A stretch of 64,000 nucleotides of DNA from Schmidtea polychroa (lineage: Eukaryota): NCBI GenBank assembly GCA_044892525.1, contig CM097885.1, positions 8,620,001 through 8,684,000 on the forward strand. Direction: 5' to 3'. A model generated the notes under the pieces. The model saw nothing but the letters and a program-made list of their open reading frames with translations. It was not told the origin of the DNA and did not search any database. The position numbers and the translations under genes were made by a program. This document shows positions 4,201 through 61,118 of the stretch, one piece after another (positions within the stretch are counted from its first letter, which is position 1; each line of letters opens with the position of its first letter).

Positions 4201-7200
4201 CTACTTTTTATCTTATTGACAAATTCCCTTATTTAATGTCACCTAAGACTATATCTGCAACAATTTATGTAAGCCCTTATATTTCAGTATACATACAATA
4301 AAGGAACTATAATGCATAGTGTTGCATAATTGTAACAAAACGCCATTGTGTTTTCAAATTATTCTAATAGATGTCTCTGTACACGTGACATTGACTTTTT
4401 TGAATTTAGAAAAATCATGCATTTAAGGGTTAAGTGGAATTTCATAAATCTTACCGCTGTTAAAAATCAATCATATAAATCCAATCAAATTCATAATAAA
4501 TACGAAATTTTAATTTTAATAAAAATATTATTAACATTAACATTATTTTAAAAAACTTCGGAAAATTTGAATACAAAATATAATTATTAAACTACCAACT
4601 GCCCGTAATATTTGTCTTCTTCGCCCGTAATGTATGCGTGTGATTAGTATAAATGCAATATTATGTGTTAAATGGGTGAGGAGTAGGGGAACAGCAAGCA
4701 ATCGAACTTATGAATGCCATGTTACGGCAAATATGGTTAAACCTGGTGAATACTGAATTATTAAAAAATTTCCATTGAAAATGGAGAATGAAATTATTAA
4801 TATGGGCATTGCGAGGGATTTTAATAATAATTTTATAGATAATAGAAAATAGAATTACCCCAAGAAATTGAGGTATTCTTCTCGCAACAATGCCGATCTG
4901 CATTCTTCTTCTTCCGCAATATTATTCTGCAATTCAAATGAATAAAACGAATACATCAAAATAATGAATTGATATAAATTAGATTATTATTTATTATTTT
5001 ATTAATATTTATTATAATTATTATTATAATTATATTTATAATTGTTATTAATATTATTATTGAATTAATATTTGTTACCATAATTTTATTTATTATATCA
5101 ATATTTTTTAATTATTATTATTTTAATATTTTATTAATTATTATTTTATTAATATTTATTATTATTTTAATTATATTTATAATTGTTACTGATATTATTA
5201 GTATTATGATTATTATTATTTGTTATTAATATTTATCATTATTTTAATATTTTATTAATATTTATTTATAATTGTTATTGCTATTATTTTTTTATTAATA
5301 TTAATTATAGTATAAAGGACTTAATAATAATTATTAATAAAAATTCAATAGAAAAAGCAAAAACTGTCTGGGGGAGAAGAGGTGCAATATTTATTAATTA
5401 TTCCTTTTTTACGTCAAGTTTGTCTGGAAATGCAAGAAACGACACCGCGTGAAATTTTAAAATTACTATAATTAATAATTATTAATATCGTATTAATTTA
5501 CTATTTATTTTTTTGTTAATTTATAATCATCATTAGTTTTATTTTAATTATTTATTTATTATTATTTATTATTACAATTTAGATTATTTGTCACAAGCAT
5601 TTTGCGTAAATAGCTGTTATGAATATTAATATTTGTTACCATAATTTTATTTATTATATCAATATTTTTTAATTATTATTATGTTATTAATATTTATTAT
5701 TATTTTAATATTTTATTAATATTTATTATTATTATTTTTTATAAATACAAACTTCAATTGAAAAGAAATCAGAGGTGAAAATTGAAAAGTTCTTATAATT
5801 TTATTAATTTTTTAATTATAGTATAAAGGACTTTTGAAAATATTAGGAACTTAAATATAATAATCATTATTAATAAAAATTCAATAGAAATAACAAAAAC
5901 TGTCTGGGGGAGAAGAGGTGCAATATTTATTAATTATTCCTTTTAATGTCAATTTTGTCTGGAAATGCAATTCTTGCAAAACCAAGTGCTCATTAAAAGA
6001 AACGACACCGCGTGAAATTTTAAAATTATTATAATAATAAAAATATAAATAATAATAAATTATTTTTTTTATTTTAATTATTTATTTATTATTATAGTAT
6101 CGATATTATCATAAACAATTTAGATTATTTGTCACAAGCAATTTGCGTAAATAGCCGTTATACCAAAAATCGATCAATAACTCACCAACAGCCCGAGACA
6201 TTTGTTGTAAATGTGTGAATTGATTGTTGTCGGTGAACTCTTGAACTTATCAATCATTATGAAGTAGACAAGGAGTCCTTGTTGCTCAACGAATTTCCTG
6301 CAAGCTGCTGTGCACTCATCGGTCAAATTCCACAACGAACTGAGAGTGAATTTCAAAATGAAATCGAAAATCGGCTCTCCAGATTCCCGCAACCTCGGCC
6401 GGATCTTTGCGAGATACGATTTGCTATCGACCGATTCGAGATCTGATTGAAGGACGCAACGGCGGCATATCAATCGCAAAAGGATTTGAAAGTTCAAATC
6501 ATCATTGACCAGCTGTCGCAACTCAGATTTCGTCAGTTCCGATGCGATAACCGATATGATAATGACTCCAGCCTGATTGATGTTCTCGATATCGTAGAGC
6601 TGCATGCCTTTGAATATGAGCTGGCTCAGCTTGAGTTTGTCATAGATTGCGTTCTGGATGATGTAATCGTTACAGATGACGAGGAAAATGTTCACCACCA
6701 GCTGCTGGTTGATATCGGGCGTGTCGAGATAGATAATCAATAATCGGACAATTTCCGACAGCTGGGAAATCGACCATTTCTCTGCATAGCTACCCTTGGT
6801 CAGATTGTACACCACAGCCGTTACTGCAATCAACCATTCGTGTTTGTGCGGTTTGATGGTGCGCATGTGGCTGATTATTGTCGAATTGAGAGTTTCATTG
6901 AAGAACGGGGAGCTTTTCGTTTTGTCGAACAGCAAATGAAGCGATGTCGTCAGATAGTGTTTGTGCTTGAGAGAATAAATAAGGCAGTTTAAGATAGTGA
7001 TTTTTGTAAACGCACCAATGAATGTGATTTGGGGATTTTCTTTGATGAATCTTTTCCATTCCGGGCTATTGGAAATCTGATGATTGGCGGAATCGGGATT
7101 GTAAATGAAATATTTCAGCTGAGTTGCTTTATTCAACATTGTCAAAAGCGTTCTCGTTTTGATGTTGTTTTGATTGCCAGAAAAATCCAATAATCGAACG

Positions 7201-7934
7201 GATTTCAAAAATTTACTCGAAAGAATATCCGAATCACTACCGATTTCTATTTTCTCCGGGTCGTTGTGAGATAAATCCAAATATCGCAATTTTGTCATGT
7301 TTTTCAGGATGGAAAGGATGTTGATAAAAGCTCGAGAATCTAACATGTGAATGTCTAAAAACTCCAGTCGATTTTCAATATATGAAAGACATGATAAATC
7401 GAGAACTGTTGTTTCGGAAATATTTAATCCAACCAATGATTGGAATGATGTACATATTTGTTTCAAATGGTTTGAAGTGAGACCGGTTTTAGATAAATCC
7501 AAAAATTTCAAATTTGTTAACTGGGTTAAAAGTATAAGAGGATATTGCTTTATGGCAACTTTGCGTAGTTTTAAATACTTTACTTTGTTTTTTGTGAAAT
7601 CATTGAAATTTTCTAAAAAAACTTCCATTTCACATGACGTAGATCGAGAAGAAAAAGACGATAAGTTAAACTGTTTTAAAAATTCATAATCTCCCATTAC
7701 TGCAGAATCCAAAGTGATATTCGATATACTGGATATAATTGGGGCAAAATATCCTAATAAATGCCGATAATTTTTTGTTAGTAATATTCTTTTCAAAAAC
7801 TTTTGTGAAGCACGCTCTGGTAGGGTTACATTTTTAATGTATGCATAATATACTTCCAAATCATTTTCTAGCAATTGAAATGACAGGTTAAAAAACTTTT
7901 CTATGCACAAATCTTCTAAATTCCCGACAAGCAT
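1300..7934 (-). CDS. zyg-11: ZYG-11-like LRR + armadillo substrate receptor of CUL2 ubiquitin ligase; multi-exon, 3' end probably beyond the window start
   Basis: Exons inferred from GT-AG and phase: 7934-6186, 4926-4859, 1661-1529, 1453-1300. LRRs (LKFLDLSKT, LRYLDLSHN), LKFTLSSLWNLTDECTAACRKFVEQQGL, GLL|NNIAE, TYFAGGILSNL and ASYRSFSPF..LWALWAIRH match ZYG11 better than ZER1. Confidence 0.9.
2361..2585 (-). pseudogene. hsp90: Decayed HSP90 N-terminal ATPase-domain fragment inside a zyg-11 intron
   Basis: Reading across frameshifts and deletions gives QLISLIINT, KEIFLRGLISNASDTLD, AELINN, SGIKALME and ISMIGQFGV in HSP90 order. Confidence 0.85.
3756..3969. mobile_element. piggyBac-type MITE
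   Basis: TTAA|CCCTTTCTAAGG...CCTTAGAAAGGG|TTAA; related copy at 34893-35119. Confidence 0.85.
5285..6160. repeat. Intronic diverged direct duplication (about 5285-5620 and 5800-6160)
   Basis: Shared blocks such as AAAAACTGTCTGGGGGAGAAGAGGTGCAATATT and GAAACGACACCGCGTGAAATTTT occur twice. Confidence 0.75.
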
Positions 7935-8844: not shown

Positions 8845-10783
8845 CAACGGTGGGCAAATGCGGCTCTTCGTTGAGTAAACTGCGGCTCATTGATAATTGA
8901 ATTCTTGATAATCGAATTCGATTTTTTATTTTGAAATTTTTCACTAAATGTTTTGAGAAAAAATTTTTTGTTGCAATTGTATTTTCATAAATGTCAAAAA
9001 TTAACGAAACATTGTTTTTCATATTTTACTGCTTTTTAAAATTATTTTGTAGTAGGCGGCGCTTTGTTATAACAACGAGAGAGAAGAATCAAAAATAAAT
9101 TTAGTGAATTTTGATTGGTTATTATTTTGTTTGTACAAGATTGCGGTCGTTTGTATATTTTAGTATAGTTTTCTATTCGTGTTTTTTGAAAAATTTGGTA
9201 AGAAGATTTTTTTATGAAGCATTTTAAAATTTTAAACTAATTAAAATTAAATTAATGTCTTTTTATTATTTTGTTTAAATTTCAGCCATATAGTTATTTA
9301 AATTTATTATTATAATGACATCAGAAAACATCAAAAAACGAAAATACAGACAAGAAAATAGAACTTTTCAAGAAGAATGGACAGAAAAGATTTTTTTTAT
9401 TGACAATAATGGTAAATCGTTGTGTCTTATTTGTAAAGGTACAATTTCCAACTACAAAGTAACCAATTTACGTCGACACTATGAAGTACGTCATCCACAC
9501 TTATCAATTCAATATCCACTCAATTCAAACTTGCGGACAGAAAAACTTAAGTCATTGCAATCAGGGCTTCAAGCCCAACAAGGACTATTATCTACTTTTA
9601 GTCGAGAAGATGACAGTGCCAACGAAGCTAGTTTTTTGATAGCTTGGAATATAGCTCGTGCTAAACGTCCATATGGAGAAGGTGAATTTATTAAGAGAAA
9701 CTTGGAAGAAGTGATTAAAGTTTTGGATCCGCACAACTCAAAATTACATAAATTGATCTCACGTATTCCTATTTCACGTCGTACAACTGAGCGTCGAATT
9801 GGCCAAATTAGCGAAAATGTTTAAAATAATTTGATGTGTGATTTAAAAAATTGTACAGCATTCAGTTTAGCTCTCGACGAGTCTACTGACATTCAGGATG
9901 TTCCACAATTAGCCGTGGACATTATGGAACATTTGCAAACATTAAATTTGGCTTTACAAGGAAAAGAAAAGATAATTATTGATTTGTCACAAACGTTATT
10001 TAGTTTTGAAGCTAAACTTCGGCTTTTTGTGAACGATCTTAGGTCGAAAATATTTAATCATTTTCCACGAATAAAAGCTAATATAATTGATATTACAGAA
10101 GAAAAAGTAAACGAATACAGTGAAAAATTGGAAGAATTGCAAGCGGATTTCAAATGTAGGTTTCAAAATTTATAAATCTACATTTGCATTTTTTGTGAAC
10201 CCATTTATTTGTGATATTATTGAAGATGGATTTCCAATTTCTGAAGTAATACTTGTTAAAAAAGCGGTTGGGGAATTGGAGTTATTAGATATGAAAGAGG
10301 ACCAGGCTTTGCAAATGCACCATAAATCTACTTCTATAGTTGAATTTTGGAAACTCGTACCAGAGGCAAAATATCCACACTTAAAACAAGCTGCTTGCCG
10401 TCTAATTTCAATTTTTGGTACAACATATTGCTGTGAATCTTTGTACTCCACAATGAAGTTCGTAAAGTCGAAATATCGTTCACAGTTGACCAATCAGCAT
10501 CTTACAGAATTGCTGCGAACAGCTTTAACAAAGTATACACCAAATTTCAAAAATTTGACCAAAAGTCTTCGTTAATTCAAGAAATTTTATTACTTTTTAT
10601 TAATGGATTTTTATGTTTGTTACTTAATGTTTGAAATAATTATTTTGTTTTTTTTTAATAGTGTTTAAGTCTCTTTAATCAAATTAATGAAATAAAAAAA
10701 AATATGTACTTTACTATGGTGGCTCTGTAAAAAATAAATTTTCGGAAAATGGCTCTTATTGAACCCATGCGTGCCCACCCTTG
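8845..10783 (+). mobile_element. hAT DNA transposon (Charlie/SPIN/GTF2IRD2-like), internally deleted
   Basis: TIRs CAACGGTGGGCA / TGCCCACCCTTG; perfect 8-bp TSD CTATAGAA on both sides. Confidence 0.92.
9315..10575 (+). pseudogene. hAT transposase, disrupted
   Basis: BED-like CLIC..LRRHYEVRH, DESTD and IFGTTYCCESLYS dimerisation region; stop at 9822-9824, frameshift near 10170, and a large in-frame deletion at QLAV|DIMEHL. Confidence 0.9.
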
Positions 10784-16184: not shown

Positions 16185-16630
16185 AGTAGATGGATGTGAC
16201 ACCGCCAGATCATGTCACCGCTAGATCACCTACCCCCCACCCCCCCCCCCCCCGACAGAAAAATTTTTTTAAAGATTTTTTTTTCAAGGTCAAATTTTTA
16301 ACAAAGACAATGACTCATCAAGGTCATTGAAACAAAGAATTTTTTTTTGTTTTAATTATCGATTATTATTAAGTGATCTAGCGGTGACATACCATTTGAC
16401 TTCCCAGAACTTTTTCAATTTTCAAAATTATTTAAATATTTATACATCATTTTGAAGGCCAGGCAAAGATCTATCTTTTGAGCCATAGAAATAATTTTTA
16501 TCATCAGTGGTACAAAAGTTATTAATTTTTTAGTCAGAGACTGATTTATGGTTAAAATTTTCAAAAATGTTCAAAGTTTACTAAGTAATTTGCGGGTGAT
16601 TTGTCAATCATCCAATCAGGTACGACTTTG
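16185..16630 (+). repeat. Left TIR of the Polinton (about 445 bp)
   Basis: Reverse complement of 27432-28086 minus the internal duplication; followed by (ATT)n at 16685-16832. Confidence 0.93.
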
Positions 16631-16714
16631 TTTATCATTATTATTGGGAAAGATATTAACGCCCGCGCGGAATATTTTCAAAAATATTATTATTATTTTC
16701 AAAGTCTTAATCAA

Positions 16715-16832
<118 letters not shown>

Positions 16833-16913
16833 GGGTAATGCTCGCAAGGGTACTGGTCACGCTCAACAAGTCACAAGGGTATTATTAAACAAATCAACAA
16901 AACATACATTTAT

Positions 16914-17413
16914 TTAAACAATAAAATAATGTAAAATTAACAAAGGTAAACTAAATATTGATGTACTACTATTCGCAGCAATATTGTTTGAAATTGGTAA
17001 CGTCGAATTGATTTTCAGATATTCTATTGATCCTTTGATTGTTTGAATTTCTCCTAATAATAATTCGATCATTTTAACAAATAATCATGCTTCTTATCAA
17101 TAATTTTCATATTCTTTTTATTTTCAACAATAGAGTTATTGAAAACTTCAATATGATCAATCAATTTAATTTTTATATTTTGTATATATGCAAATGATAG
17201 TTCATAACTGTTTTCTAAATTCTCCAATCTTTGAGATATTCTTTTTCCTGGATGCTTTGACCATTTTGGTTTGTCAAGAATATATAAAATATCCATCAAC
17301 TTGGCTGTATTCGGACAAACACATATTGATTTATTAAAAGACTCCACTGTTATTGTTGTATTGTGTGAGCACACACTCGTTATAATAATTAGCAATATGA
17401 ATATAGTTTTCAT
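16914..17413 (-). pseudogene. Polinton accessory gene: predicted secreted/surface coiled-coil protein with a hydrophobic C-tail; one frameshift
   Basis: Signal peptide MKTIFILLIIITSVCS; a 1-nt shift at about 17072 continues the frame as MIELLLGEIQ...SSTSIFSLPLLILHYFIV*. Confidence 0.65.
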
Positions 17414-17518
17414 GGTGTATCAAATCAAAACCTTTCTTTTACATTTATAGTCTATCAACCAATCAAAATCATACGGTATTAGTATAAATAAAACATCATA
17501 TTTTAAATTATTGTAGAA

Positions 17519-18034
17519 ATGTCTCATTTTATGGAAAATCTTTTAAGCGAACTTATCAATAAGAATATTATGGAAAGCCTCAGTTTCCTGGTCGATCGGA
17601 CCGAAAAGATTATAGAAGGAAATCATATTGATTATGAGGATGTGCTCAATTCCGAATGCCTCGAAACGAAAAAATTTTATTTTCATAGGATTTTTAACTG
17701 TCTATGCGACGAAGAGATGAAGTGGACCCGAATACTAGTAGGGTTCGCTTATATGAAGATCATAATCGAAAGAAGTTTATGGGACTCTGAACATTATTAT
17801 CAGTGGTCTCAAGAAGTAATACTTTTATTAATATTTATTTTATTAATATTTATTTTCTAGATAATCAAATCAAAGTTTCAGCCATGGATTGAAGCCAATG
17901 GCGGATGGGGCGTGCTGAATCAACTCGCCAGAAATGCGAAGGAAATAGATCAACAGAAAATCAAATTTAAAAACTATTTAAAACTTGCAACAGGTGTTGC
18001 TATTTTGTATGTTTTATGCAGGTTTTTTAAATAA
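17519..18034 (+). CDS. Bcl-2 family protein (156 aa, 2 exons) carried by the Polinton
   Basis: Intron 17816-17860 (GT..TTCTAG); BH1-like DEEMKWTRILVGFAY, BH2 FQPWIEANGGWG, C-terminal anchor LATGVAILYVLCRFFK. Confidence 0.85.
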
Positions 18035-18111
18035 AAATTAATATAGTTATTTTGTTTGATTTTTAAATAAAATTTTAAATAAATTTACAAACACTAATTA
18101 ACTAAAATTTA

Positions 18112-18536
18112 TTAATTAACACATTCACAGTCATCATCTCCACATTTCATTATATTTTCAACGACATGATCAATACAATCATTCGTAATATTATCTTTAG
18201 GTTCATCTTTAGGTTCCTCTATAGGTTCCTCTACAGGTTCATCTATAGGTTCATCTATAGGTTCATAGATTTCCTCATCAATTTCTTGAGTTTCTTCCTC
18301 ATCAATTTCTTGAGTTTCTTCCTCATCAATTTCTTGAGTTTCTTCCTCATCATCAAATCCTGTATCTTGACTCTCAACTATCCAGCCGATATTTAAGGCA
18401 TTTGTAATAGATAATATGTCCTCAATTTTCACACCAGCTATTTCTGCTAACTTTTCCAACAAAAAGTTGATTACAAATTCTAAATAATAAATAATTCGGT
18501 AATTAATTAATCATGTTAACCTTTTTCTGCAGTCAT
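18112..18536 (-). CDS. Acidic low-complexity Polinton protein, 2 exons
   Basis: Exon 1 MTAEK(E), intron 18480-18520, then an in-frame ORF with (DEEETQEI)x3, EP repeats and a Cys-rich tail. Confidence 0.7.
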
Positions 18537-18669
18537 TTTCATCACTTTAAAACTATATTATAAGTTTTTTTATAGATTTTCTTTGTTAAATTTGCATGTC
18601 ATTTGCATTTATGTTGCAATTAATAAAGAGAAAAAACAAATATGACTAATACATTTATTAAATATAACA

Positions 18670-19080
18670 TTAAAATATTTGTGAAAGTCTAGCAGACATT
18701 ATTTTCCAAATAGGAGAATATACATCATTATTATCAACTTTATATCCCTGGATTGCAATTGTTATATACCAATTTTCATTTTCTTTGAAACTGATTTCAT
18801 CAAAAGCATCATAAAATCTTGCATATCTATTGTTGAACCATGCATGTTGATTACACGACAGATTCGAATCTATCCGTTTAAAAACATCATCAATAGTTTT
18901 GACATCAATCATTGAAAGCGTGCCGGATAAGAATTGAAATTTAGTTGGAATTAGCTTGACTGGTGCAACCAATTTCATATTGATTTCTTCTTTCAAAAAA
19001 TACATTTTGTAGTTGTGGAACATTTGAACTGGTTGTACCATTTCTTTAGGTTTTTCGGTGCTTGAAATTTTCTTGGTCAT
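18670..19080 (-). CDS. Polinton hypothetical protein, possibly an OB-fold ssDNA-binding protein
   Basis: Intact 136-aa ATG ORF; beta-rich C-terminus WYITIAIQGY...SPIWKI is reminiscent of viral SSBs (weak). Confidence 0.55.
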   Translation of the reverse strand: MTKKISSTEKPKEMVQPVQMFHNYKMYFLKEEINMKLVAPVKLIPTKFQFLSGTLSMIDVKTIDDVFKRIDSNLSCNQHAWFNNRYARFYDAFDEISFKENENWYITIAIQGYKVDNNDVYSPIWKIMSARLSQIF

Positions 19081-19329
19081 CGTGAATAATGAATAAATTT
19101 AAATGTTACAGGGTTTTTATACCTTTGACTCATGCCTATCAACCAATCAGATTATAGCATGTCTTTGTTTAAATTGCATTCAAAATGCATTGATGTTGCA
19201 TTGTCACATGTTTTGTTATACGTTCTATTTACAGATTTATTATTTATGTGTTTTATTATTAATGTTTAAATTATTACATGTTTTGTTATATGTTCTATTT
19301 ACAGATTTATTATTAATGTGTTTCATTAT

Positions 19330-19515
19330 TATTAATTTTTTTTACTATTATTTCTATTATTATTATTACTATTCATATTTCTATTATTACTATTATTATT
19401 ACTATTCATATTTCTATTATTACTATTATTATTATTATTTCTATTTCTATTATTACTATTATTATTATTATTACTATTACTATTATTATTATTTATTACT
19501 ATTATTTATTACTAT
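19330..19515. repeat. Imperfect (TAT/TAC)n microsatellite inside the Polinton
   Basis: Direct reading; it produces the spurious poly-Tyr ORF. Confidence 0.9.
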
Positions 19516-19553
19516 TTCAAATATAAAAAAACACAACAGATACAAAAATACAT

Positions 19554-19971
19554 TTATTCATATCCAAGATCTACAATCCGGGAGTAGTGAAACCTTCTCA
19601 GAGTTTTCACTAACTCCCATTCGACATATCGCCAATATCGATCGGCACAGCATGAGCATCCGATGATGCATTGGTACTCCGGCTCCATTTGTTTCATAGT
19701 TCTGTTGATTTTGACATCCCATAAAAATTGGTGGAATACCTCCATGATTCTTATTTGGGTTGAATAAAAAATCAAATCAGGTATGATTTCCGGTTCCCGA
19801 TCCTTGATTACTTCAGCAATTTGCGGATAATAATATTTTATCCTATTGATCATTATTTCTAAATATTTTTCTAAAATAATAAATATAAAAAAATGTGAAA
19901 ATAAAAATTTTAAATTTACCATAATCGTCAATATCTTTCATGAGATTCGCGGCGCTCGGAATTTTGTACAT
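19554..19971 (-). CDS. Polinton hypothetical protein with CxxxCxCC motif, 2 exons
   Basis: Exon 1 MYKIPSAANLMKDIDDY(E), intron 19871-19919, joined in frame to KYLEIMINR...CIIGCSCCADRYW. Confidence 0.7.
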
Positions 19972-20043
19972 AGTGAAATAAATGAATCCTAAACAAAAAA
20001 CCGTTTGTTTAAATCAATCAATAACCAATTAGAAATTAACCAA

Positions 20044-20481
20044 TTAGAAATCGACCAATGAAATTATCTCATTTCGAACATTGTCAACAAATTCTCTATA
20101 CTCCAAATTTCTCAACCCCAACATGACAACCTTTCCACTAGCAAACACGTTGACACATATAGGGTTATATTTTAATAGTCTTAGTGCCGGAAACAATTCC
20201 GGTTCAAACATACAATCACATTTTTTCGACATGTTATATAGATTGATACTATGTCCCATATCCATAGTAACGGTAATTGATTGGATTATAATATTATTTA
20301 TTCGATATTGTAATTTATTAATATCCAAAGGTTACTTACATCCCATGATTCTGCATTTACCAGTCTTGAAAAATATTATCGGATATTTCCCACTTCTATC
20401 GATAATTTGCTGGGGTTTCCCTGGTGGGAACCTCATATTCGATACATCAAAATTTCCTCGATAATTTATATTTGCTAACAT
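20044..20481 (-). pseudogene. TATA-binding-protein-like gene with one in-frame stop
   Basis: Repeat 1 IIFFKTGKCRIMG; repeat 2 IQSITVT...FEPELFPAL...VNVFASGKVVMLG (TBP: YEPELFPGL..LIFVSGKVVLTG); TAA at 20332-20334. Confidence 0.85.
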
Positions 20482-20580
20482 TATTAAATCATTTATGAAA
20501 ATTATTCTTTATATACAAATTGAGCACGAGTTCATTAAATCATCGAATATAAACAAATACACATATATAAAATTTTTGAA

Positions 20581-21207
20581 ATGGAATTAAGAAATGATGC
20601 AGTATACCAAATCGTTGGTCCGAGTGGTAGCGGAAAAACATTATTTGTTTGTAAAATTACTAAAATCAAATTTATTCAAATCAAAATTCAACAGGATTTA
20701 TTGGCATAGGGTGCTGATGAAGAACATGGATTAACTCAATCAAGTTTCTGTAAATTAAAAAACATGAAAATTGTAAAGGGATTCGATAAAAACTGGTCCA
20801 GCCGATTAAAGAAAGGTGATGTCATTATTATCGATGATTTGTATCAAGAAGCTAATAAAGAAAAAGATTTTAATAATTTATTTACAAAGATCAGCAGACA
20901 TGTCGGTGTAACAGTTATTTTCATAACACAAAATCTATTTCATCAAGGTGGGGCACATCGAACACGTAATTTAAATATACAATATTTAGTTATTTTCAAG
21001 AATCCTAGAGATGCAACAGTGATTGATTTTCTTGCACGTCAAGCATACCCTAACAATCGTAATTTTCTTATCAGTGCATTTCAAGATGCTACAAAAATAC
21101 CTCATGGATATATATTTCTTGATTTCACACAACAATGTCCCGATGATTTACGAGTAAAAACAGATATTTTCAACCCAAAAGGTGCCATGGTTTATAAACA
21201 AAGTTGA
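20581..21207 (+). pseudogene. A32/FtsK-like genome-packaging ATPase
   Basis: Walker A GPSGSGKT (20617-20640), Walker B VIIIDD, SRH..ITQN..RT..LN..Y.VIFKNPRD; compensating +1/-1 frameshifts at about 20655 and 20710. Confidence 0.92.
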
Positions 21208-21225
21208 AAACCTCTATGAATAATA

Positions 21226-21752
21226 ATGTTTCTAAAAGCAAGGGTGAAAAATATTAGGAAATTAAGAAAAAGTATTAGAAAGAGTATTAAAGTTCCAAAA
21301 GTTCCACCAACAACTAGTTATACACCGTCTAAAAAACTTGTAACTGAAAATTTCTCTGCAATGAATCTTATTTCGAAAAATCCTAAACCTAAACGTAAAA
21401 CTCGTAAAACCCGTAAAACCGGTAAAAAAGTAGTTAAAAATCATCGCAGTTTTCCATTTTTTAATGCATTGTTAAAGGCCCCGAGTATGAAAAGAATGAA
21501 TATATTGCAATCATTCCCAAATTTTGTTGTCGATGATTTACTCAATATTATACTTAAGTAGTCAAAGGCAAAATTAAAATCAGTAAATCAAAAAAGCATT
21601 TATTGAGCAAACATAGGAAACCATTGTTATCTTTAGTAAATAATAAAAATCGTAAGCAAATGAGGAAAATTATATATAAACAACAAGGTGGATTTATTGG
21701 TGCATTGATACCTCTGGCATTATCATTATTAGGTGGAGTTACACAAACATAA
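21226..21752 (+). pseudogene. Lys/Arg-rich putative core protein with C-terminal QQGG|FIGALIPLALSLLGG hydrophobic peptide; one frameshift
   Basis: Basic ORF 21226-21561 continues after a 1-nt shift at about 21558 to TAA at 21752; the xGG motif resembles adenoviral protease cleavage sites. Confidence 0.7.
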
Positions 21753-21755
21753 ACA

Positions 21756-21983
21756 ATGGGTGCTAATCCTTCATTGCCCGACATTAAATTTAATTTTAAA
21801 TCTTCTTGTTGTAATGGAGAAGATTTGGACGAACCCAGAAGACGAAGCCGGTTTCGGTGGAGTGGCAAAATTAAAGAAAAGAGTTCCGAATTCGAAAAAA
21901 GAAACCCAGAAGTGGTTATCAGATCAGCTTGCGTACAGTTTGAACAAACCAATGCGGAAAAGATTTCCAACAAGAGCGTATAA
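21756..21983 (+). CDS. Small putative myristoylated protein overlapping the integrase start in another frame
   Basis: MGANPS fits MGxxxS; SSCC; basic RRRSRFR; starts 3 nt after the upstream stop. Confidence 0.5.
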   Translation: MGANPSLPDIKFNFKSSCCNGEDLDEPRRRSRFRWSGKIKEKSSEFEKRNPEVVIRSACVQFEQTNAEKISNKSV

Positions 21984-22201
21984 AACATTTGGTATTGACG
22001 ATTTATGGCAAATGGATTTGATGGAGATGATACCTTATTCGAAAATTAGCAATGGGAATAAATATATTTTAACATGTATTAATGTATAGAGCAGGTTTGC
22101 ACGAGCAATACCAGTCAAGGCAAAATCTGCAGAAGTAATGTCCAAGGCAATTAATATTTTATTTAAAGATGGACATCCTAATAACTTGCAAACAGATTTA
22201 G

Positions 22202-22257
<56 letters not shown>

Positions 22258-22887
22258 TTAGGTAAAGAATTCTACAATAGTAAAGTTAAGCAAATCCTCG
22301 ATAAACTGAAAATAAATCACTACTCGGTACATTCTCAATACAAAGCTGCCCATGTTGAAAGATTTAATCGAACATTGAGAGATAGATTAAAGAAATTGTT
22401 CGTGCATCAAGGTAATAAAAAATGGGTAAATGCTTTACCGAAAATAATAACAAGTTATAATCATTCATCACATCGAGGACTGAATGGATTGAGACCGGTT
22501 GATATTACATCAAAAACACCAGTATCTAAGAAATCTGTAAAAATTGCAAAACCTAAATATAAAGTCGGTGACCATGTTAGAATTAGTAAAATTAGTGCAT
22601 CACCATTTATTAAAAATTTTGATACAAATTGGAGTGATGAAGTCTTTGTAATTTCAAAAATAAATACTAAACAGAATCCTGTAATGTATGTAATCAAAGA
22701 CAATGATAATAATATTGTACAGGGGAAATTTTATGAGCAGGAATTACAAGTCATTCCTCCCCCAAAAGTATTTAGAATTCAAAAAATATTGAAAACTAAA
22801 AAGGTCGGTAAGGATAAACAATACTATATCAAATGGCATGGTTATCGAAACCCGTCATGGATATCAGCAAAAGACCTAGTAAAGTGA
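21814..22887 (+). pseudogene. Retroviral-like (c-) integrase with C-terminal chromodomain; one in-frame TAG, one intron
   Basis: AGFGG..KL N-terminus; D (WQMDL), D (LQTDLG|KEF), E (HVERFNRTL); YYIKWHGY..SWI chromodomain; TAG at 22087-22089; intron 22202-22261. Confidence 0.95.
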
Positions 22888-23901
22888 ATTTTTATACTAT
22901 TTTGCCGAGCAATAGTTGTCCATTAATTCATCCAGAAAATCAAGCAAGCAAATTCATCATCGAACTCCAAAACCCTATCTATTTGGATAATGACTGGGAA
23001 GTTGCTCTGTTGGATTTTACATTTGTATACAATTTATTCCCAATCTATAGCAAATCAGTTATTGAATATAATAAGAAAGTAGCAGTTACGGAATATATTA
23101 GTGTTCTTATCGATAAAGATAGTTATAACTTGACGAGTTCATCGAAATCAAGGAAACCTATAATTTATGATGATGGTCAATATTTATACATGAATTGCTT
23201 GAATAAGCCATTCGAAATTATATTTTCTACAGTGGCTGATGCTAAACGTCTTGGATTTTCTGATTTACGTAATGTATTTAATGATACAGTCAAAAAAAAA
23301 TCTCTCTACACTTCCAAAAACTAATAATTTAGTGGAATTCAAATTTAAGCTATCATACATTGAAATAACTGAGCATGCATATACTTTTAAAGATAATTTA
23401 TATATTACAGACCTCGAACAATTACAATCTTATTTAGGTGAGAATTGTAGCGATATTTTAACAGTTTTTGAGCTTCAAAAAGATAAAGTATTTAGATTTA
23501 GTATAAATTCTAATCTTAGTCAAGTTAAATTTGACTCAAATTTGACAAAAACATTAGGATTGACTAAACCAGTATGTACACAAAATGAACAAATTTGTGA
23601 AGGAACAAACAAACCGAAAATCCTTAAACATCATCAGCAAATGTTCATTTACAGTAATATCGTGGAACCAGTTATTGTTGGCGATTCTAGTGTTCCTTTA
23701 ATGATATCTATATGGATTGAAAAACATGATCAAGATGAAGTTGTACAAATCAATGTAGAAAATCCCATGTATTTACCTGTTTCAACATCTTGTATAAACA
23801 ATATAGAAATAAATATAAGAGATGATTCTGATCAATTAATCGAATTTCCAAAAGGTTCAAAAACTCATTTGACATTACATTTTCGTAAAATAAATGGCTA
23901 A
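22884..23901 (+). pseudogene. Minor capsid protein (penton-like); frameshift in an A-run
   Basis: FYTILPSNS..PEN..SKF..L..PI.L..DWEVAL N-terminus and MFIYSNIVEP...YLPV...IEINIRD...HLTLHFRK C-terminus; shift at about 23295; start is GTG overlapping the integrase stop. Confidence 0.88.
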
Positions 23902-24262
23902 TTCTGATATTATTAGTATGTATAGTGGTAGCCAATCTGGTGGTGAATTACCATATTTTATTGGTAAACAGTACGGATCAGGATGGTTGAGAACAATTGG
24001 AAGATTTGCCCTGCCTATTCTTAAACGTATTGGTAGTTTTGGTATGAAAACTGCAAAAGATGTTATTATGAATGAACAGAAAATATTACCATCTCTAAAA
24101 TCAAATGCTTTAGCTGAATTAGGGAAAGTTTTACCCGGGGTTGCAGGTATGTTTCAAAAAGAAAAACCTCCAGCTCCAGCTCATGCTCCAAAACGTAAAA
24201 GACATGGAATATCACGTATAAACAAACGAATGAAAGGCCATGGAACTATATTTGCAAAATGA
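23894..24262 (+). CDS. Polinton core / membrane-active precursor protein
   Basis: QSGG and QYGSG motifs, amphipathic WLRTIGRFALPILKRIG, basic tail; lies between the two capsid genes with overlapping start/stop codons. Confidence 0.75.
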   Translation: MANSDIISMYSGSQSGGELPYFIGKQYGSGWLRTIGRFALPILKRIGSFGMKTAKDVIMNEQKILPSLKSNALAELGKVLPGVAGMFQKEKPPAPAHAPKRKRHGISRINKRMKGHGTIFAK

Positions 24263-25479
24263 TTTGTGGTAAATCTGAATTATGTATATTTGATAGACCA
24301 TCGCTCCAGGCTGTAATAGAATTTGGGGCATTTGAGGAAGTTTTTCCTATGAATTCAATTACCGATAGTAGAAATGATATCGTGTTTTATATTAATGGTT
24401 CGCAAACCGAATATTTAGATTTGAACGATACTTTATTGACTGTTCAGATTAAGGTTGTAGATAAAGATAGAAAAGCTTTGGATGCCAATGCAGATGTAAT
24501 ACCGAACAATTTCCTGTTTCATACTCTTTTTAAAGATGCAATGTTGGGATTTAATAATATCAAGATTGAGGGCGGAAATAATACATTCATTCACAAGGCA
24601 TTAATAGAAACTATTTTAAATTACAATTCCGATACTAAAAATACATGTCTTACTCCTATGGGTTATGGCAGTGATGATGAAAGAAAAAAGTGGGTAAAAG
24701 GCTCAAAGGTTTTCACCATGTGCTCATCATTACAACTTGATTTTATGGATCAACCAAAATATTTACTACCGGGAGTTAATGTACATATTAGACTGAAAAG
24801 GTCTGATTCTGCATTATCTCTTACTAGTGCAACTACTACACCAATATGTCAATTAGTTGATGCAAAATTATTGGTGAGAAGAGTTCGAGTAGACCCCTCA
24901 GTATTAGCAGGTCATCAATTGGGTCTTAATTCAAAACATGCAATTTATCCATTAAAAACAAAGGAAATTGTACAATTTGCTATTGCTAAAGGTGCTTCAT
25001 CATTCTATAAAGAACAAATATTTGGTGACAGAAGAATGCCTAATTTTATTCTGGTAACATTTCAAAGTGAAGCACAATATAATGGATCATATACTGCGTC
25101 CACCTCAATTTTCAAAAACTTTGGTGTTACTTCATTGACTTTGTCGAAAAATACTGATTATAGAGAAACATATATTCAAGATTTCGAGAATGATAATTAC
25201 TGTGCGACATATATGCAGAGTATTGTTAGAAATCTGGGTTATTTAGATAAAAATTTGAATTGTGGAATAACTCTAGAAGATTTTAAAAGCAAATACCCAT
25301 TTTTTACATTAGTTTTAGCCCCTGATTTTGATTTAAATCAAAGTCAATTACCTCAAAATGGAAATTTACGACTGGATATAAAGTTTGCAAAAGCTATTAC
25401 TGAACCAGTACATGTTATAATATATGGAGTATTTGAAAATGAAGTTCAAATTACTGCAAATAGAACAGTGTTAGTATAA
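24259..25479 (+). CDS. Major capsid protein (double jelly-roll), intact 406 aa
   Basis: KSELCIF..P..Q..I N-terminus, YLDLNDTLL, QPKYLLPGV..IRL.R, GNLRLDIKFA and C-terminal ITANRTV typical of Polinton MCP. Confidence 0.92.
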   Translation: MICGKSELCIFDRPSLQAVIEFGAFEEVFPMNSITDSRNDIVFYINGSQTEYLDLNDTLLTVQIKVVDKDRKALDANADVIPNNFLFHTLFKDAMLGFNNIKIEGGNNTFIHKALIETILNYNSDTKNTCLTPMGYGSDDERKKWVKGSKVFTMCSSLQLDFMDQPKYLLPGVNVHIRLKRSDSALSLTSATTTPICQLVDAKLLVRRVRVDPSVLAGHQLGLNSKHAIYPLKTKEIVQFAIAKGASSFYKEQIFGDRRMPNFILVTFQSEAQYNGSYTASTSIFKNFGVTSLTLSKNTDYRETYIQDFENDNYCATYMQSIVRNLGYLDKNLNCGITLEDFKSKYPFFTLVLAPDFDLNQSQLPQNGNLRLDIKFAKAITEPVHVIIYGVFENEVQITANRTVLV

Positions 25480-25506
25480 ATGTATATTGAAACATAAAAA
25501 GTTGTC

Positions 25507-25891
25507 ATGGAGTAAGTTGTTTTTTATACTCTGGATTTATTTAAGTAGTTCTGTTCAGGTCAATAAAATCGGAAAACAGATATTGGGAAATGAATTTGTT
25601 TGAGTTTTTCCTCTTGATAAAATTCCATATTTGAGCAATAATCAAGCAATAATCGTCAATACTCAATCGTCTCATCTTGGTGGAGAACATTGGATAGCTA
25701 TATATGTGAAACCTGGTAATATATTCGTGTTCGATCCTATGGGTTTTTATTACCCGGCTTTGTTGATATCAAAACTGCAAACAATGGGGAAACCTATTGT
25801 GTATAATAAAATTATGTTTCAAAATCCTTTGACCAAAACATGTGGTCAACATTGTTTAGCTTGGTTATTGTACAAAAAATCTGATGTTTAA
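25507..25891 (+). pseudogene. Adenain-like (Ulp1-fold) cysteine maturation protease
   Basis: H (GEHW), D (FDPMG), Q (FQN), C (TCGQHC); inferred intron 25512-25548 gives an MDSVQVNKI start; TGA at 25601-25603 replaces G of FV(G)VFPLD. Confidence 0.88.
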
Positions 25892-26154
25892 TAAATTTGA
25901 TGTTTAATAAATGTATCCTTTCCTTTGTTGTTGTGATTAATATTATTATTTTAATATTATTATTATTTTTAATTAATATTATTATTATTTCGAAAAATAT
26001 TATTATTTTTAATTAATTTTATTATTATTCATATAAATATTATTAATTCGAGATAAAGACTACCTATGCCTGAAGCATGCACAGTGCAAGTTAACAAAGG
26101 CATGACTAACAAAGACAGTCACATGTAATTTCAGAGTGATTTACATGTATGCGT

Positions 26155-26250
26155 GTGATTGGTTGAGAGAGTAAAATATTCAGTGTATATGCGTGTGTGT
26201 CTATATTCTGATTGGCTGGGACAGGAAAATATTCATTCTCTTTATAAACA
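26155..26250 (+). promoter_or_regulatory. Putative Pol II promoter (two inverted CCAAT boxes + TATA) for the terminal acidic gene
   Basis: GATTGGTT at about 26157, GATTGGCT at about 26210, TTTATAAA at 26241, ATG at 26325; similar CCAAT+TATA pairs precede the Bcl-2 and RING genes. Confidence 0.5.
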
Positions 26251-26324
26251 TTGACAAATCTAAAATTTGTCACAATTATTTTAAAATTTTCAAAAATTTT
26301 CAACAATTTTCAACAATTTTCAAA

Positions 26325-26994
26325 ATGGACAAAAATAATATTTTAAGAAGCATGATGGCTTGCGATAATGGTATATTATTTATTTTTATTTATTTTTTAT
26401 ATATTTATTTGTAGATGATTTATGGTACCAGGTGACCGAAAACGAGAATGGATTTAATTTGAATTGCACCTATGGTAATTTTATTTTTTTTTTATTTATT
26501 AATATTATTATTATTTAGATGTTATAATGTTGAGTGACGAAGAAGACGAAATAATAATTATTAGCGATGAAGAGGAATCACCAATTATTAATCATCACGA
26601 CTTATCAAGTAAATTATTATTATTTTTATTATTTAATTTAAAAAAACTGTTTTAGGAAATAGTCAAAGAGAAAATTCCCCCAATTTTGTTGGAGAAACAG
26701 AAAATTTAATAGGTGCAATCATTGAAGATACACGTAAATTTTTATTATTATTATATGTAATTTTTAAAAATTGATTTAGGAAGTTCAATTATTTTGGAGG
26801 ACATATATGATCCTATTATGGATGATCTATATGCTCCCATTAATGTGGATGTCAAGGAAATTGCTCCAGAGACAAAATTATTTAATACCCCTATTCGGGA
26901 TGCTTCTATTCATGAGGTTTTTGATGCCCCCACTTTAACCGGGGATGTCCTCTCTGAGAATGATACAGATTCAGATTCTGAATCTAAATGTTAG
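26325..26994 (+). CDS. 5-exon acidic Polinton protein (162 aa) with tandem SIM-like motifs
   Basis: Exons 26325-26370, 26415-26474, 26519-26608, 26656-26733 and 26780-26994 join without stops via four phase-1 GT-AG introns; DVIMLSDEEDEIIIISDEEES. Confidence 0.78.
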
Positions 26995-27094
26995 TATTTT
27001 TTATTTTATTTATTTTATAAATATTTATTTTAATAATTTCTTAAATTAAAAATAACATTCTGTAGAATATTTAAATTATTTTAAACATAAATTT

Positions 27095-27187
27095 TATATG
27101 AAACATGATGAAAATTATATGAAACATGATGAAAATTATATGAAACATGATGAAAATTATATGAAACATGATGAAGTTTATATGAAA
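27095..27187. repeat. 20-bp tandem repeat (TATATGAAACATGATGAAAA)x4
   Basis: Direct reading. Confidence 0.9.
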
Positions 27188-27236
27188 TTAATGATTCTAA
27201 CTAATCTAGAGAATGTTATTTTTATTTAAGTTTAGA

Positions 27237-27323
<87 letters not shown>

Positions 27324-27342
27324 TTTAATAATAATAATAATA

Positions 27343-27431
<89 letters not shown>

Positions 27432-28086
27432 CAAAGTCGTACCTGATTGGATGATTGACAAATCACCCGCAAATTACTTAGTAAATTTTGAACATTTTTG
27501 AAAATTTTAACCATAAATCAGTCTCTGACTAAAAAATTAATAACTTTTGTACCACTGATGATAAAAATTATTTCTATGGCTTAAAAGATAGATTTTCGTC
27601 TGGCCTTCAAATTGATGTATAATTATTTAAATAATTTTGAAAATTGAAAAGGTTCTGGGAAGTCAAAAGGTATGTCACCGCTAGATCACTTAATAATATT
27701 TTTGAAAAATAATAATAATTTTAACCAAATTAGTGTCTGACTAAAAAATTAATAACTTTTGTACCACTGATGATAAAAATTATTTCTATGGCTCAAAAGA
27801 TAGATTTTCGCCCGGCCTTCAAAATGATGTATAAATATTTAAATAATTTTGAAAATTGAAAAAGTTCTGGGAAGTCAAAAGGTATGTCACCGCTAGATCA
27901 CTTAATAATAATAATCGATAATTAAAACAAAAAAAAAATCTTTGTTTCAATGACCTCGATGAGTCATTGTCTTTGTTAAAAATTTGACCTTGAAAAAAAA
28001 ATTTCTTAAAAATTTTTTCCCCCCCCGGGGGGGGGGGGTAGGTGATCTAGCGGTGACATGATCTGGCGGTGACACATCCATCTACT
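27432..28086 (-). repeat. Right TIR of the Polinton with an internal about 215-bp tandem duplication
   Basis: About 27505-27697 is repeated at about 27719-27908; preceded by (AAT)n at 27237-27430. Confidence 0.93.
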
Positions 28087-32039: not shown

Positions 32040-32760
32040 ATGATATTTTTGCATATTTTATTTAAACTTTTTCTTTGGAATTCCTTACAGGTGGGTTTGA
32101 ATAGTTTATCAAGTTGGAAACCGGCGAATTCGTCGAGTTTGTGTGAAAGCAATCAAGTTATTTCGTCAGAATCAAACCTGATTTCATGTCTTATTCACTG
32201 TGAGATTAGTAAATGTTGTCAAGCTAAATTTCTGAAAGGCCAACAAAAATGTTTGTTATTTTATTCAAAAGAAATTTTGTATCCCAATAAAGGGTTTTAT
32301 TCGCTGGCATTGAAGAATTCAACGTGTACCGATGAAATTAGTGACAATGATATAAGAATTAATGAAAAATACTTTGCAAATAATAATACAAAGACCATAA
32401 ATAATAGTTTTGAAACTTGTAAGCGTTCTAAGGCTGAGGTTGCAGAATTCAACAACTTCCACGAGGCATCAATTTTGATCAACCAAATTAAATACACTGA
32501 AACAAGTAGCCATCCTTTTGGTCTTTTTAATATTTTTGATTTTTATAGATAGAGAAACGATAAAATTTATGATCGGGGCAATACGAATTTCGGATAAACA
32601 GTTCCAATGGATGAGATCGAAAAAGGTCTTCTCTTTAAACACTACTAGTATAAAGCCAAGTTTCGAAGAATACGTTGCAGTGATTAAAGATCATAACGGG
32701 GCGACTTTAATTAGGTTTAATGTTTCACATCTTGGAGTATTATGCGAATGTTTTCCTTGA
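32040..32760 (+). CDS. Secreted PAN/apple + C-type-lectin-like protein, 2 exons
   Basis: Hydrophobic N-terminus, CxxxCxxxxCC..C PAN-like pattern, intron 32506-32548, lectin-like FMIG...FQW...GVLCE. Confidence 0.7.
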
Positions 32761-35622: not shown

Positions 35623-36624
35623 TAGTTTCTTTTAATGTTTTTAGAACGCGACACGCGCCAAACGAAATGACTAGGCGTTACGTAACCTTGATTTTTAATA
35701 AAATAATAGAATATAACTATACATCACACCATCTATACAAGAACCAGTAAAGTTGAGAATCTCAATTAATGAGACCTCAACAAACCCATTTAAAATTTAT
35801 ATAATAATTATATATTATAATTGATGACAACTTGAGATTTTTCAAGTATTTGTTAGCTAATAAAGCTGCTGGAGAAATGAAATTCAAGAGGACCTGACAA
35901 TAAAGATGCAGGAAAAATCATCGGCATTTCCAATATATTTTTAAAGGATATTTTTTAAAATGAAATTTAAAATAAGTAAAAACAAATAATTTTTTAAACA
36001 TTAAATTTAAATTATACAGAATTGAACCATTTGTCTAATTGTGGCTCTGGAAATTCTGAGTTAACGATTTTCGGCTCCCGTCGGGATAAAGTCTGGCCAT
36101 TTCTGGTATATATCGTTGAAAAGAAAAAGAAATTCTCTACGTGAAAGCTTTTGTAATATCTTTAAAATCTTTTAAACTATATAAATACTTTGTACTCTTT
36201 AATCTAACCCAACCGTTCTGGTGCTGTGACTCCTAGCGACCCCAACAATAAAATTAATATGGTTGCTCCTCAGTCGTATTTTTGCAGTTAACTGTTACGT
36301 TGTAGACTATTAAACATCTGATTTTATATATATTTTATACTTAATGGCACCATATTTTTTGTTACCAGTTTGTTATATGTTTTGGTTAATATTGTTAAAA
36401 ATGAATTTGAAAAGAAATAAAATATTTACATTTACAATATATTCAGTATGTATTGTGCAATGTATATTACACAATTAAGAGTCACACACTATCGAAGCTA
36501 TTAACTTAAAGTTGGGGCTTTAATTTATAAAATTTGAAAATAAAATAAACCTGAAGAAAGAAAAGATTTTATTAATATTAATTATAACTACGAAAATGTT
36601 AGAGTGGCAAAACCGAAGAAGCGT

Positions 36625-38090
36625 CAGTGGAAAGACTGTGCTTGCTTCTTTCTTGCTAAATCAGAAATTCTTGGAACGGTTTTTGCAAGAGCATAACGCA
36701 GATCATCTTCGGCAACAAGTCTACTTCTGTATTTTTATTTGATAACCAACACGCTTGAAAAGCCTGTTTCACAAAGGTATGTTGTTGGAAAAGGAAGAAG
36801 CAGGCGCAAAACGATTACAGACAGAACAGGATATAAATGCAAACACTTGATCCAGAATTTGGTAATTGACATTGAAGAGAAATAATATTTTCCTGCATCG
36901 CTGATAATGAGTTCAATGAATTCCTCTTGTGCATTCTCAGGAAAATCTTCAACTCTGATGGTGAATGGACTTCTAGCAAGTGCAAATGGCGTATTAGGTA
37001 AATTTGGAAAATATCTTGAAATCTCTTCTTCAAGAATTTTAAAATTTTCTTAGACAGAAATTATTGTTCTATCCATTGTTTCCTGTTCAATGTCATTTTC
37101 CTCAAAGAAAGTAGATTAGTTCGACAACATATAAATTTTATTTTCATCCAATTTCGTTCGCCAAAGTTGAAGTTTCACAGTTGGAATGCTGGGATCTTTT
37201 TTGACAATCTAGGTATGGTGCAAAAATTTAAACCAAATAAGCAATTTTGTGAAGTTGTATTTTTCGCAAAAAAGTACTTCAAAGTGTGATTTAGGTTTTA
37301 AAAAACTTTTTGATTCATCACAAAGATGAAAAACACGTTTTTTCAAACTTGCCTCTGGACAACCATCTCACATCAGTGTGGAATAGGAGAACATTATTGA
37401 ATGCATCGAACTCACTGCAAAGTTTTGAAAACAAGTGGCTGTTTAAAGCACTAGCTTTTACAAAATTCACGGCATTTACAACATTTTTTGTTAATTCTTG
37501 AAATTTTGTTTTACAAAATCTTCATTGCTAACAGTTGTCGATGAATCGTACAGTGAGTTCCTATGACTTTCGGTGATGCATTGATTACCAACCGTTGAAA
37601 TCCAGATCTACACCCTAGCATTGCTGGAGCACAAACAAACACCACAAACATTTTCCCAAGGGATGTCATGATTTTGAAGAAATGGCCCAATTGTGTCAAA
37701 TACATCGTGTGCAGCAGTCATCGTTTCAATTGGCTTGCAAAAAATAAAACTCATCTTTGAATTCGCCTTCATTAATATACCTCACGTAAACCAGTAACTG
37801 AGAAAAGTTTGCCATATCTGTTGATTCATCAATCTAGATGCTAAATATTTCCAGGGAGCAGATTTCGTTTCTTGGATTACTTGCTCAATAATATCAGCAG
37901 GCACTTCATCTATTCTTCTACTTACGGTGTTCTTAGACAAGGACATTGTATCCAATTTGTTAACATATTCAACTCCAAGCATAACTCGAACAATGTCTTT
38001 GGTCGCTGGCAAAAGCAAGTCTTCGGCAATGGTGTGATGTTTCTAGGCTTTGGCGATTCTAATAGCCACCAAATATGAAGCTTCAATGGC
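36625..38090 (-). pseudogene. Decayed hAT (Charlie/Buster, ZBED5-like) transposase
   Basis: HTIAEDLLLPA, DESTD, HCTIHRQLLA, LLLPFPTTYLCETGFS; truncated at the (TA)n tract. Confidence 0.85.
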
Positions 38091-38092
38091 TG

Positions 38093-38202
<110 letters not shown>

Positions 38203-39558: not shown

Positions 39559-54538
<14,980 letters not shown>

Positions 54539-55690: not shown

Positions 55691-55722
55691 ATTTATCCTA
55701 TCACTTGATTATTATCACTTGA

Positions 55723-59162: not shown

Positions 59163-59420
59163 TTAAACAAAGAAATATATAACTAGAAATCTAAGTTAAA
59201 TTTTGTAATTTACTTACATTTTATCTTCTTTGCGAAATATTCAATAGTTCCAGCAGCACAAGCAACTGAATCATCAACTGAATCCTCATTAAAATTTCCT
59301 GGAAAAGACAATTAAGAATAAGCAATGAATTATTATTATTTAACTTTTTCGTCCATATTCGTTTGCAGGTATCGAAGTAACAAAATGTTCTTCAATTATG
59401 ACACAATCGCTATCTAGAAA

Positions 59421-59457
<37 letters not shown>

Positions 59458-59702: not shown

Positions 59703-59750
<48 letters not shown>

Positions 59751-60933: not shown

Positions 60934-60941
60934 CAATTACT

Positions 60942-60991
<50 letters not shown>

Positions 60992-61010: not shown

Positions 61011-61118
<108 letters not shown>

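Follow-up and report, generated by a model that had tools for sequence, protein, structure and literature searches.

Results

Intron-like segments in a Maverick copy

The window analysed here is a 64,000-nucleotide (nt) stretch of the Schmidtea polychroa genome (assembly GCA_044892525.1, contig CM097885.1, positions 8,620,001 to 8,684,000 of the forward strand). At 16185..28086 it contains an internally deleted Maverick/Polinton element of 11,902 base pairs (bp), bounded by AGTAG...CTACT ends and a 6-bp target duplication with one mismatch (5/6 bases identical). Nine short GT-AG segments interrupt its genes. Comparison with other copies and families makes it very probable that they are spliceosomal introns inherited from an intron-bearing Maverick/Polinton lineage, one family of which is represented in the window by a dead copy with an internal deletion. 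The introns are a property of an entire clade of families and not only of the window copy; the family of the window copy is called W here, and B, D and H are other families compared with it.

An earlier note on this DNA had proposed nine introns in six genes, mostly in phase 1. All nine segments lie at the places that it gave or implied, begin with GT and end with AG, and translation of the exons one by one assigned seven of them to phase 1, the Bcl-2 intron being in phase 0 and the protease intron in phase 2. The count of nine segments stands; the last, 'terminal' gene is most likely the leader of the pPolB gene, and a tenth donor had been overlooked. Removal of the segments does not yield working genes in the window copy, in which in-frame stops and a frameshift remain.

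The segments are 37-60 nt long and their AT content is 0.83-0.97, except in the protease intron (0.76). The donors (GTAAGT, GTAAAT, GTAATA and GTATTA, with a weaker GTTAAC in the acidic-protein gene) together with the consensus and the T-rich 3' part are as in U2 introns. A chance filter for intron-like segments, run on both strands of 4.3 kilobases (kb) of intron-free element coding sequence, found 0 there and recovered 8/9 of the claimed introns, missing that of the protease. The bias to phase 1 gives p=0.008 per intron and p=0.10 per gene (4/6); the excess is weak once duplicated leader exons count as one gene, and it comes largely from duplicated exon-intron units of the leader. The similarity of the introns to the short introns of the host, which had also been pointed out, agrees with the myosin genes, in which a crude call gave 14 introns with a range of 34-111 nt and a median of 54, although some of these are doubtful. 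The 43-nt candidate in the lectin gene (likely 32506-32548) is plausible, but its donor is weak and the gene has no Pfam match.

In 85 gene-copy alignments, 0 substitutions were found at 338 positions of the splice dinucleotides. Substitutions in the same alignments amounted to 116/3,552 (3.3%) in introns and 2,258/42,925 (5.3%) in exons, and indels to 14.6 per kb in introns versus 2.3 in exons. In sister families with 58-77% identical capsid, the introns of the integrase, protease and Cys-rich genes lie at the shared codon and differ in their inner sequence. Homologues of the integrase, protease and Bcl-2 proteins that lack the segment run straight across the junction in alignments; alignment through the segments, which the earlier note had named as a refuting outcome, did not occur. 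Evidence from the same codon or an intron-free homologue was obtained for the integrase, protease, Bcl-2 and Cys-rich genes and for the pPolB junction, and evidence from within the family for the acidic-protein and leader introns. The pairwise similarity of the nine introns did not exceed that of shuffled sequences, except for leader introns 3 and 4 and one pair with p=0.01 among the 36 tested. As had been anticipated, annotation based on open reading frames (ORFs) truncates or misreads the genes: the database proteins P0121 and P0122 read a few residues into the Bcl-2 intron and then stop, and the database proteins P0157 and P0161 take protease intron sequence as the N-terminus.

Probable introns of the integrase and protease genes

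The gene for a retrovirus-like integrase with a chromodomain (21814..22887, + strand) has two exons, the first of which contains an in-frame stop in the window copy; rve and the chromodomain were found in close homologues. Its intron (22202..22261, +, phase 1) is a 60-nt ATT repeat located two codons past the QTD motif. The motif search matched 112 of the 120 outside homologues, and in 110 the two-residue spacer was free of any insert; the remaining ones were 2 that mismatched elsewhere and 8 without the region. A clean 20-codon gap was found exactly at the intron in 8/8 aligned homologues. At the same integrase codon, family B, which bears pPolB and has 67% capsid identity, has an insert of 42 nt that differs from this repeat and contains stops; no insert is present there in families D and H. 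Genome-wide, the integrase pattern was found with 807 short inserts (control 0), which comprise several unrelated sequences; one of them is 43 nt long and shifts the frame.

A quick integrase tree grouped W, B and H (support 85) within intronless relatives, which points to a gain of the integrase intron within the W/B/H clade; one gain with a loss and two gains are both compatible with this tree. Around the G|GT site the intron is flanked by a short direct repeat, which in family B measures about 10 nt (L045:1137-1178, window 22195-22266), as expected for intron gain via duplication or repair at a proto-splice site.

The adenain-like protease gene (25507..25891, +) is composed of a 5-nt first exon and a main exon. 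It matches Pfam Peptidase_C5 above the cut-off and has an in-frame stop in the window copy. The 37-nt intron (25512..25548, +, phase 2) lies right after the start codon, beginning two bases past it, and the main exon has no Met ahead of the conserved region. GT-AG ends are present in 20/20 copies, in which the intron is 30-41 nt long, and its position is common to families W, B, D and H. Metagenome loci with 58% identical capsid have the protease intron at the same place in 3/4 cases; the fourth (L098), as well as P0159, has an intronless protease that starts with M-N-[AS]-x-Q-I, as the joined exons would read. The protease-intron motif had 2,316 matches genome-wide (control 0), and the intron-less junction of the window-family form had 0 genome-wide.

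Probable introns of the accessory genes

The Bcl-2-like gene (17519..18034, +) has two exons of 99 and 57 amino acids (aa), separated by a phase-0 intron of 45 nt (17816..17860, +) that is 44 nt long in 16 other copies. Family D has an intronless Bcl-2 protein of 144 aa (L051:4784-5215), which scores above the Pfam Bcl-2 cut-off and has matches to Bcl-xL structures; its residues 1-97 align with exon 1 of the window gene and its residues 100-118 with exon 2. The matches in a search with exon 1 were two intron-read-through fragments only. Because the conserved intron of animal Bcl-2 genes lies further on, in BH2, the intron of the element was probably not inherited from a host gene.

The acidic-protein gene (18112..18536, - strand) has two exons, with the same layout in a diverged subfamily. 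Its 41-nt intron (18480..18520, -, phase 1) splits the start codon from the frame and has GT-AG ends in 17/17 anchored copies and in the diverged subfamily. The Cys-rich gene (19554..19971, -) also has two exons, and a homologue with about 35% identical exon 2 is found in family D, where the 49-nt intron (19871..19919, -, phase 1) has the same position and phase. No family was found for the Cys-rich gene, the leads in the ESM Atlas being weak at 0.81 or less.

The terminal gene, a probable pPolB leader

The terminal gene (26325..26989, +) is composed of five acidic exons of 46, 60, 90, 78 and 210 nt, which are separated by introns at 26371..26414 (44 nt), 26475..26518 (44 nt), 26609..26655 (47 nt) and 26734..26779 (46 nt), all in phase 1 on the + strand. 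It is followed by the tenth donor site (26990..26995, +, phase 1), whose acceptor lies in the deleted part of the element. Comparison of the copies suggests that this gene most likely represents the missing pPolB gene's spliced 5' leader.

The gene is highly variable among copies, yet it always consists of short acidic exons and phase-1 introns, and every version closes with the conserved word D-S-D-x-E-S-[KQ], after which comes T|GTAAG or T|GTTAG. When 15 leader sequences were parsed, nine were in phase 1 throughout and free of stops, and internal exons were multiples of 3 in 13/13 parsed leaders. Genome-wide, leader ends are followed by GTWAG at 748/770 sites; some subfamilies read this word as a stop and others as Lys, so that conservation concerns the donor rather than the stop. 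The main exon of pPolB begins 0.66-1.56 kb past the leader at a phase-1 acceptor in 11/11 copies where the acceptor was found. The acceptor is followed by the motif x-[LF]-[YF]-[PQ]-x-Y-C, and there is no Met upstream. Outside proteins with the pPolB domain read C-x-x-[YF]-P-x-Y-C, with Cys at the site of the split codon in 8/9 of those with the strict motif, and the long leader intron splits this conserved Cys codon. Families B and D have the same mini-exons, a T|GTAAGT donor and a distant acceptor. Duplicated intron-exon units are present in L029 and L024, and leader intron 3 is similar to leader intron 4; the phase-1 run in the terminal gene is attributable to such duplication.

In L029, L041 and L024, the long pPolB intron contains AAT tracts and, between them, arrays of a GCAGTGAGCATGCA word that is palindrome-like. 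Such arrays, also present in the window at 60756-60907, are a candidate cis element.

Structure, gene content and copies of the element

The terminal inverted repeats of the element are located at 16185..16860 (left) and 27260..28086 (right), their inner edges being approximate. An (AAT)n tract at 27240..27430 marks the site where about 5.5 kb, including pPolB, is missing in comparison with full copies (L025, L026 and L040). The full copies are 17.2-19.7 kb long and share the AGTAG...CTACT type of ends. Most of the 14 copies extended on both sides span this length; 13/14 carry pPolB and 13/14 have terminal inverted repeats, and a perfect 6-bp target duplication was recognized by eye in six (L024, L028, L033, L034, L040 and L041). 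A first reading of the family as lacking pPolB was dropped when the gene was found in 8/9 independent extended copies and then in 13/14.

The window copy is a dead, internally deleted Maverick. Besides the stops in integrase exon 1 and protease exon 2, it has in-frame stops in the TBP-like gene (20044..20481, -; Pfam TBP, 1.7e-11) and in the gene for an A32-like packaging ATPase (20581..21207, +; Pfam Pox_A32, below the cut-off, E 0.004), both intronless. The TBP-like gene is also present in families D and H, as a 149-aa ORF in family D. A gene for a basic protein (21226..21752, +) is broken. The probable minor capsid (penton) gene (22884..23901, +), named by position and size, is frameshifted; its counterparts in sister families are single ORFs of 338-352 aa. 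It is followed by a small conserved gene (23894..24262, +) upstream of the intronless gene for the double jelly-roll major capsid protein (24259..25479, +). The capsid protein matched at 0.98 an ESM Atlas cluster in which 65% of the members carry PF21738, and its gene had 104 scored matches at 97-100% in the 781-megabase genome. A conserved gene of unknown function (18670..19083, -), in which no intron was seen, has homologues in sister families. The Pfam search gave no match for the separate Bcl-2 exons or for the acidic, Cys-rich, penton or capsid genes, and a PDB sequence search with the capsid protein gave none.

The Maverick hallmarks are thus present: AG...CT inverted repeats, the 6-bp duplication, integrase, ATPase, protease and double jelly-roll capsid, with pPolB at the level of the family. 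By every feature testable, the element belongs to the Maverick family, but it departs from the described intronless state of the core genes, a trait that is described for Mavericks and is not definitional.

The deleted copy recurs about 331 kb away (L023, G000:C1:8968371-8978370) with 99.9% identity. Its flanks are the same as those of the window copy, and this twin represents either a segmental duplication or a duplicate in the assembly rather than another insertion. The Maverick load is very high genome-wide, with 8,817 first-look pPolB candidates in addition to the protease-intron motifs, and several genomic pPolB matches are arranged as close inverted pairs. Expansion of Mavericks in planarians is reported in the available part of 10.64898/2025.12.11.693146. 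Family B (L045:1793-3827) has two penton-like genes in tandem. The middle of the penton-like gene (window 23050-23610) is swapped among copies L025, L026, L027, L030, L034 and L040, which are otherwise 90-98% identical, and L124-L127 have a 58% version of it; this variable region could be a receptor- or host-facing part. A scan of viral contigs with the capsid and the integrase found no relatives, and the protease-intron pattern gave 6 and 0 matches in viral contigs, of which 0/6 encode an element protein; these scans have no bearing on virions.

Other features of the window

A lone pPolB fragment of 713 aa from another Maverick family (55723-57864, -), with an endonuclease VII-like stretch, adjoins Maverick-type end repeats near 55500; the region 52000-64000 had no capsid, integrase, protease or ATPase match. 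At 61030-64000 there are three tandem 1.03-kb units, each with a RING-finger ORF of 182 aa and a stretch that matches the window Maverick family in its left-end region, and they adjoin GCAGTGAGCATGCA repeats similar to those of the long pPolB intron. In a CHD/Mi-2-like chromatin remodeller gene (41600-54400, +), several stops lie in frame and one exon is duplicated (44917 and 45074). The gene is probably a decayed copy, and it is too broken to be used for host intron sizes. A ZER1-like frame of 586 aa (6174-7934, -) is intron-free, and broken pieces of hAT/SPIN-type transposase are located at 9294-10575 (+) and 36500-38100.

Discussion

The present analysis shows a Maverick lineage of S. polychroa carries intron-like segments at inherited positions, including positions in core genes. 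The following scheme is proposed. The element would be transcribed in the nucleus by the host RNA polymerase II, and the host spliceosome, which would be able to handle introns of such sizes, would remove them. If left unspliced, the protease would have no start codon, the active site of the integrase would be interrupted, and pPolB would lack its start and its first conserved Cys. The introns may have been gained singly within the lineage, that of the protease earlier and that of the integrase later at a G|GT site, and may then have spread by ordinary transposition. The phase-1 run in the terminal gene would have grown by duplication of exon-intron units, and the terminal gene would be joined to pPolB as its 5' leader across a repeat-rich intron of 0.7-1.6 kb. 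The window copy may have lost pPolB through recombination between two (AAT)n tracts. The earlier note described the element as adapted to host splicing, even in core genes. The comparative evidence supports dependence on splicing, core genes included; that this reflects adaptation is a further step, which we infer.

Several observations weigh against this interpretation and are given here together with the alternatives. The segments might be AT-rich insertions or decay that arose after integration, as with the introners of dinoflagellates, which are reported as mostly post-integration in the available part of PMC11957031, or they might be chance GT-AG pairs. The window copy is dead, and the filter fires often in AT-rich non-coding DNA (18103-like spacers and 19250-19550), so the GT-AG shape alone is suggestive and is not proof. 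The copy comparisons were all referenced to the window copy and share ancestry, so that their counts are not independent, and the GA donor of one copy sat in a gap and went uncounted in the dinucleotide tally. Against this stands the absence of such segments from the other coding sequence of the element, and above all their position at the same codon across thousands of copies, four families and other samples, which largely refutes post-integration or chance origin. An introner origin was rejected, as the nine introns have no shared sequence apart from leader introns 3 and 4 and the one pair mentioned above. We consider this explanation extremely improbable. For the integrase alone, the insert might be a microsatellite expansion translated or tolerated as poly-Ile. 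In the window family it is an ATT repeat of 30-186 nt whose length is a multiple of 3 and which is free of stops in 21/21 copies, two of the inserts are only 30 nt long, and one copy has a GA donor; in addition, the set of outside homologues, being derived from ORF calling, is skewed to intronless genes, and the branching of W, B and H is not settled in the quick tree. This reading is nevertheless very unlikely: the insert begins with GT in 20/21 and ends with AG in 21/21 copies, it lies at a spot where 110 homologues have none, and at the same codon sister families have non-repeat inserts that contain stops or are 43 nt long.

The terminal gene leaves more room for another view, in which the short introns are real but the gene encodes a separate acidic protein ending at TAG 26992-26994, and pPolB starts at a nearer exon of its own. 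In the window subfamily the frame meets a stop right at the donor, and L029 and L041 have an ATG and a second phase-1 donor, with an intron of 51-55 nt, just ahead of the pPolB acceptor. The long intron contains repeats and, in family B, a gene on the opposite strand. Among the 15 leaders, 4 were frameshifted and 2 had no start that could be found, and 25/34 hits with the pPolB domain lacked the strict motif. The nearer donor has no counterpart in L024, L025 and L034, however, and GTWAG is kept at nearly all leader ends though it is a stop in some subfamilies only. The mini-exons, donor and distant acceptor shared with families B and D also argue against a separate gene, and we regard it as unlikely. 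A leader spliced to pPolB is thus preferred for the terminal gene, and a separate acidic product and the polymerase may both arise by alternative splicing.

Taken as one claim, these features describe a recently active Maverick clade that reaches beyond the host genome, in which introns in the integrase, protease and pPolB genes are obligatory, a fast-changing acidic N-terminus of the polymerase is built by shuffling symmetric phase-1 exons, and the long leader intron could act as a switch that yields either a free acidic protein or the polymerase. From the sequences compared, we would give this joint claim about even chances.

A parallel is known in adenovirus: in the E2B mRNAs for the polymerase and the terminal protein, a distant upstream exon supplies the N-terminus of a protein-primed polymerase. 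Adenovirus is a non-integrating virus and its leader supplies a few residues only, whereas the leader described here would supply 100-230 acidic residues from 4-5 exons that vary among subfamilies.

The vertebrate and nematode Mavericks and the adintoviruses, as presented in the available parts of PMC8097293, 10.1101/2022.07.12.499685 and PMC8502044, share with this element the repeats, the 6-bp duplication, a length of 17-20 kb, pPolB, rve integrase, A32 ATPase, adenain protease and capsid. Adintoviruses also carry Bcl-2 homologues (Starrett et al., PMC8502044, available part). The core genes of Polintons are usually treated as intronless, as the earlier note had said: the accessible text of Barreat and Katzourakis (PMC8097293) states that introns were absent from 134 intact vertebrate elements, which agrees with Kapitonov and Jurka, and that of Widen et al. 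(10.1101/2022.07.12.499685) describes nematode Mavericks with intronless core genes and introns only in cargo genes. Unlike those Mavericks, the present families have the integrase, the protease and very likely pPolB split, at positions inherited across families. Maverick-Polinton-like elements of dinoflagellates likewise have spliceosomal introns inside full-length elements; according to the part of PMC11957031 available, these are copies of intron-generating transposons, mostly inserted after integration, whereas the introns described here are unrelated in sequence, fixed in position and inherited with the element. Ginger DNA transposons have a related integrase-type transposase with 1-4 GT-AG introns at conserved positions, but they are single-gene cut-and-paste transposons without capsid, protease or polymerase (PMC2836005, available part). 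No report of inherited introns in core Maverick genes was found in the literature searched, though hand-curated Repbase entries may already mark such exons. The available parts of PMC10748475, PMC12220804, PMC6431247, PMC9004415, PMC10680173, 10.1101/2024.03.25.586562 and 10.64898/2026.10.13.758929 contain nothing on spliceosomal introns in Maverick genes.

The finding is a moderate surprise, given that other DNA transposons and nuclear DNA viruses commonly have introns. For the study of Mavericks it implies that ORF-based surveys shorten such genes, as in the four database proteins mentioned above, and that active families would be lost under a rule that expects only intronless ORFs of intact Mavericks. 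For the history of the families, intron positions that are shared or lost can serve as markers. The splice junctions also make activity testable, since junction reads cannot stem from DNA contamination or from read-through of dead copies; if the joint claim is true, they would be a direct assay of element activity. Introns that need removal from the integrase, protease and polymerase transcripts would place expression in the host nucleus and argue against dependence of this Maverick lineage on a cytoplasmic helper virus. If the joint claim holds, these elements would be nuclear viruses that depend on host splicing and are unable to run in a cytoplasmic helper factory, and their host range would be limited to animals that splice AT-rich introns of 35-50 nt.

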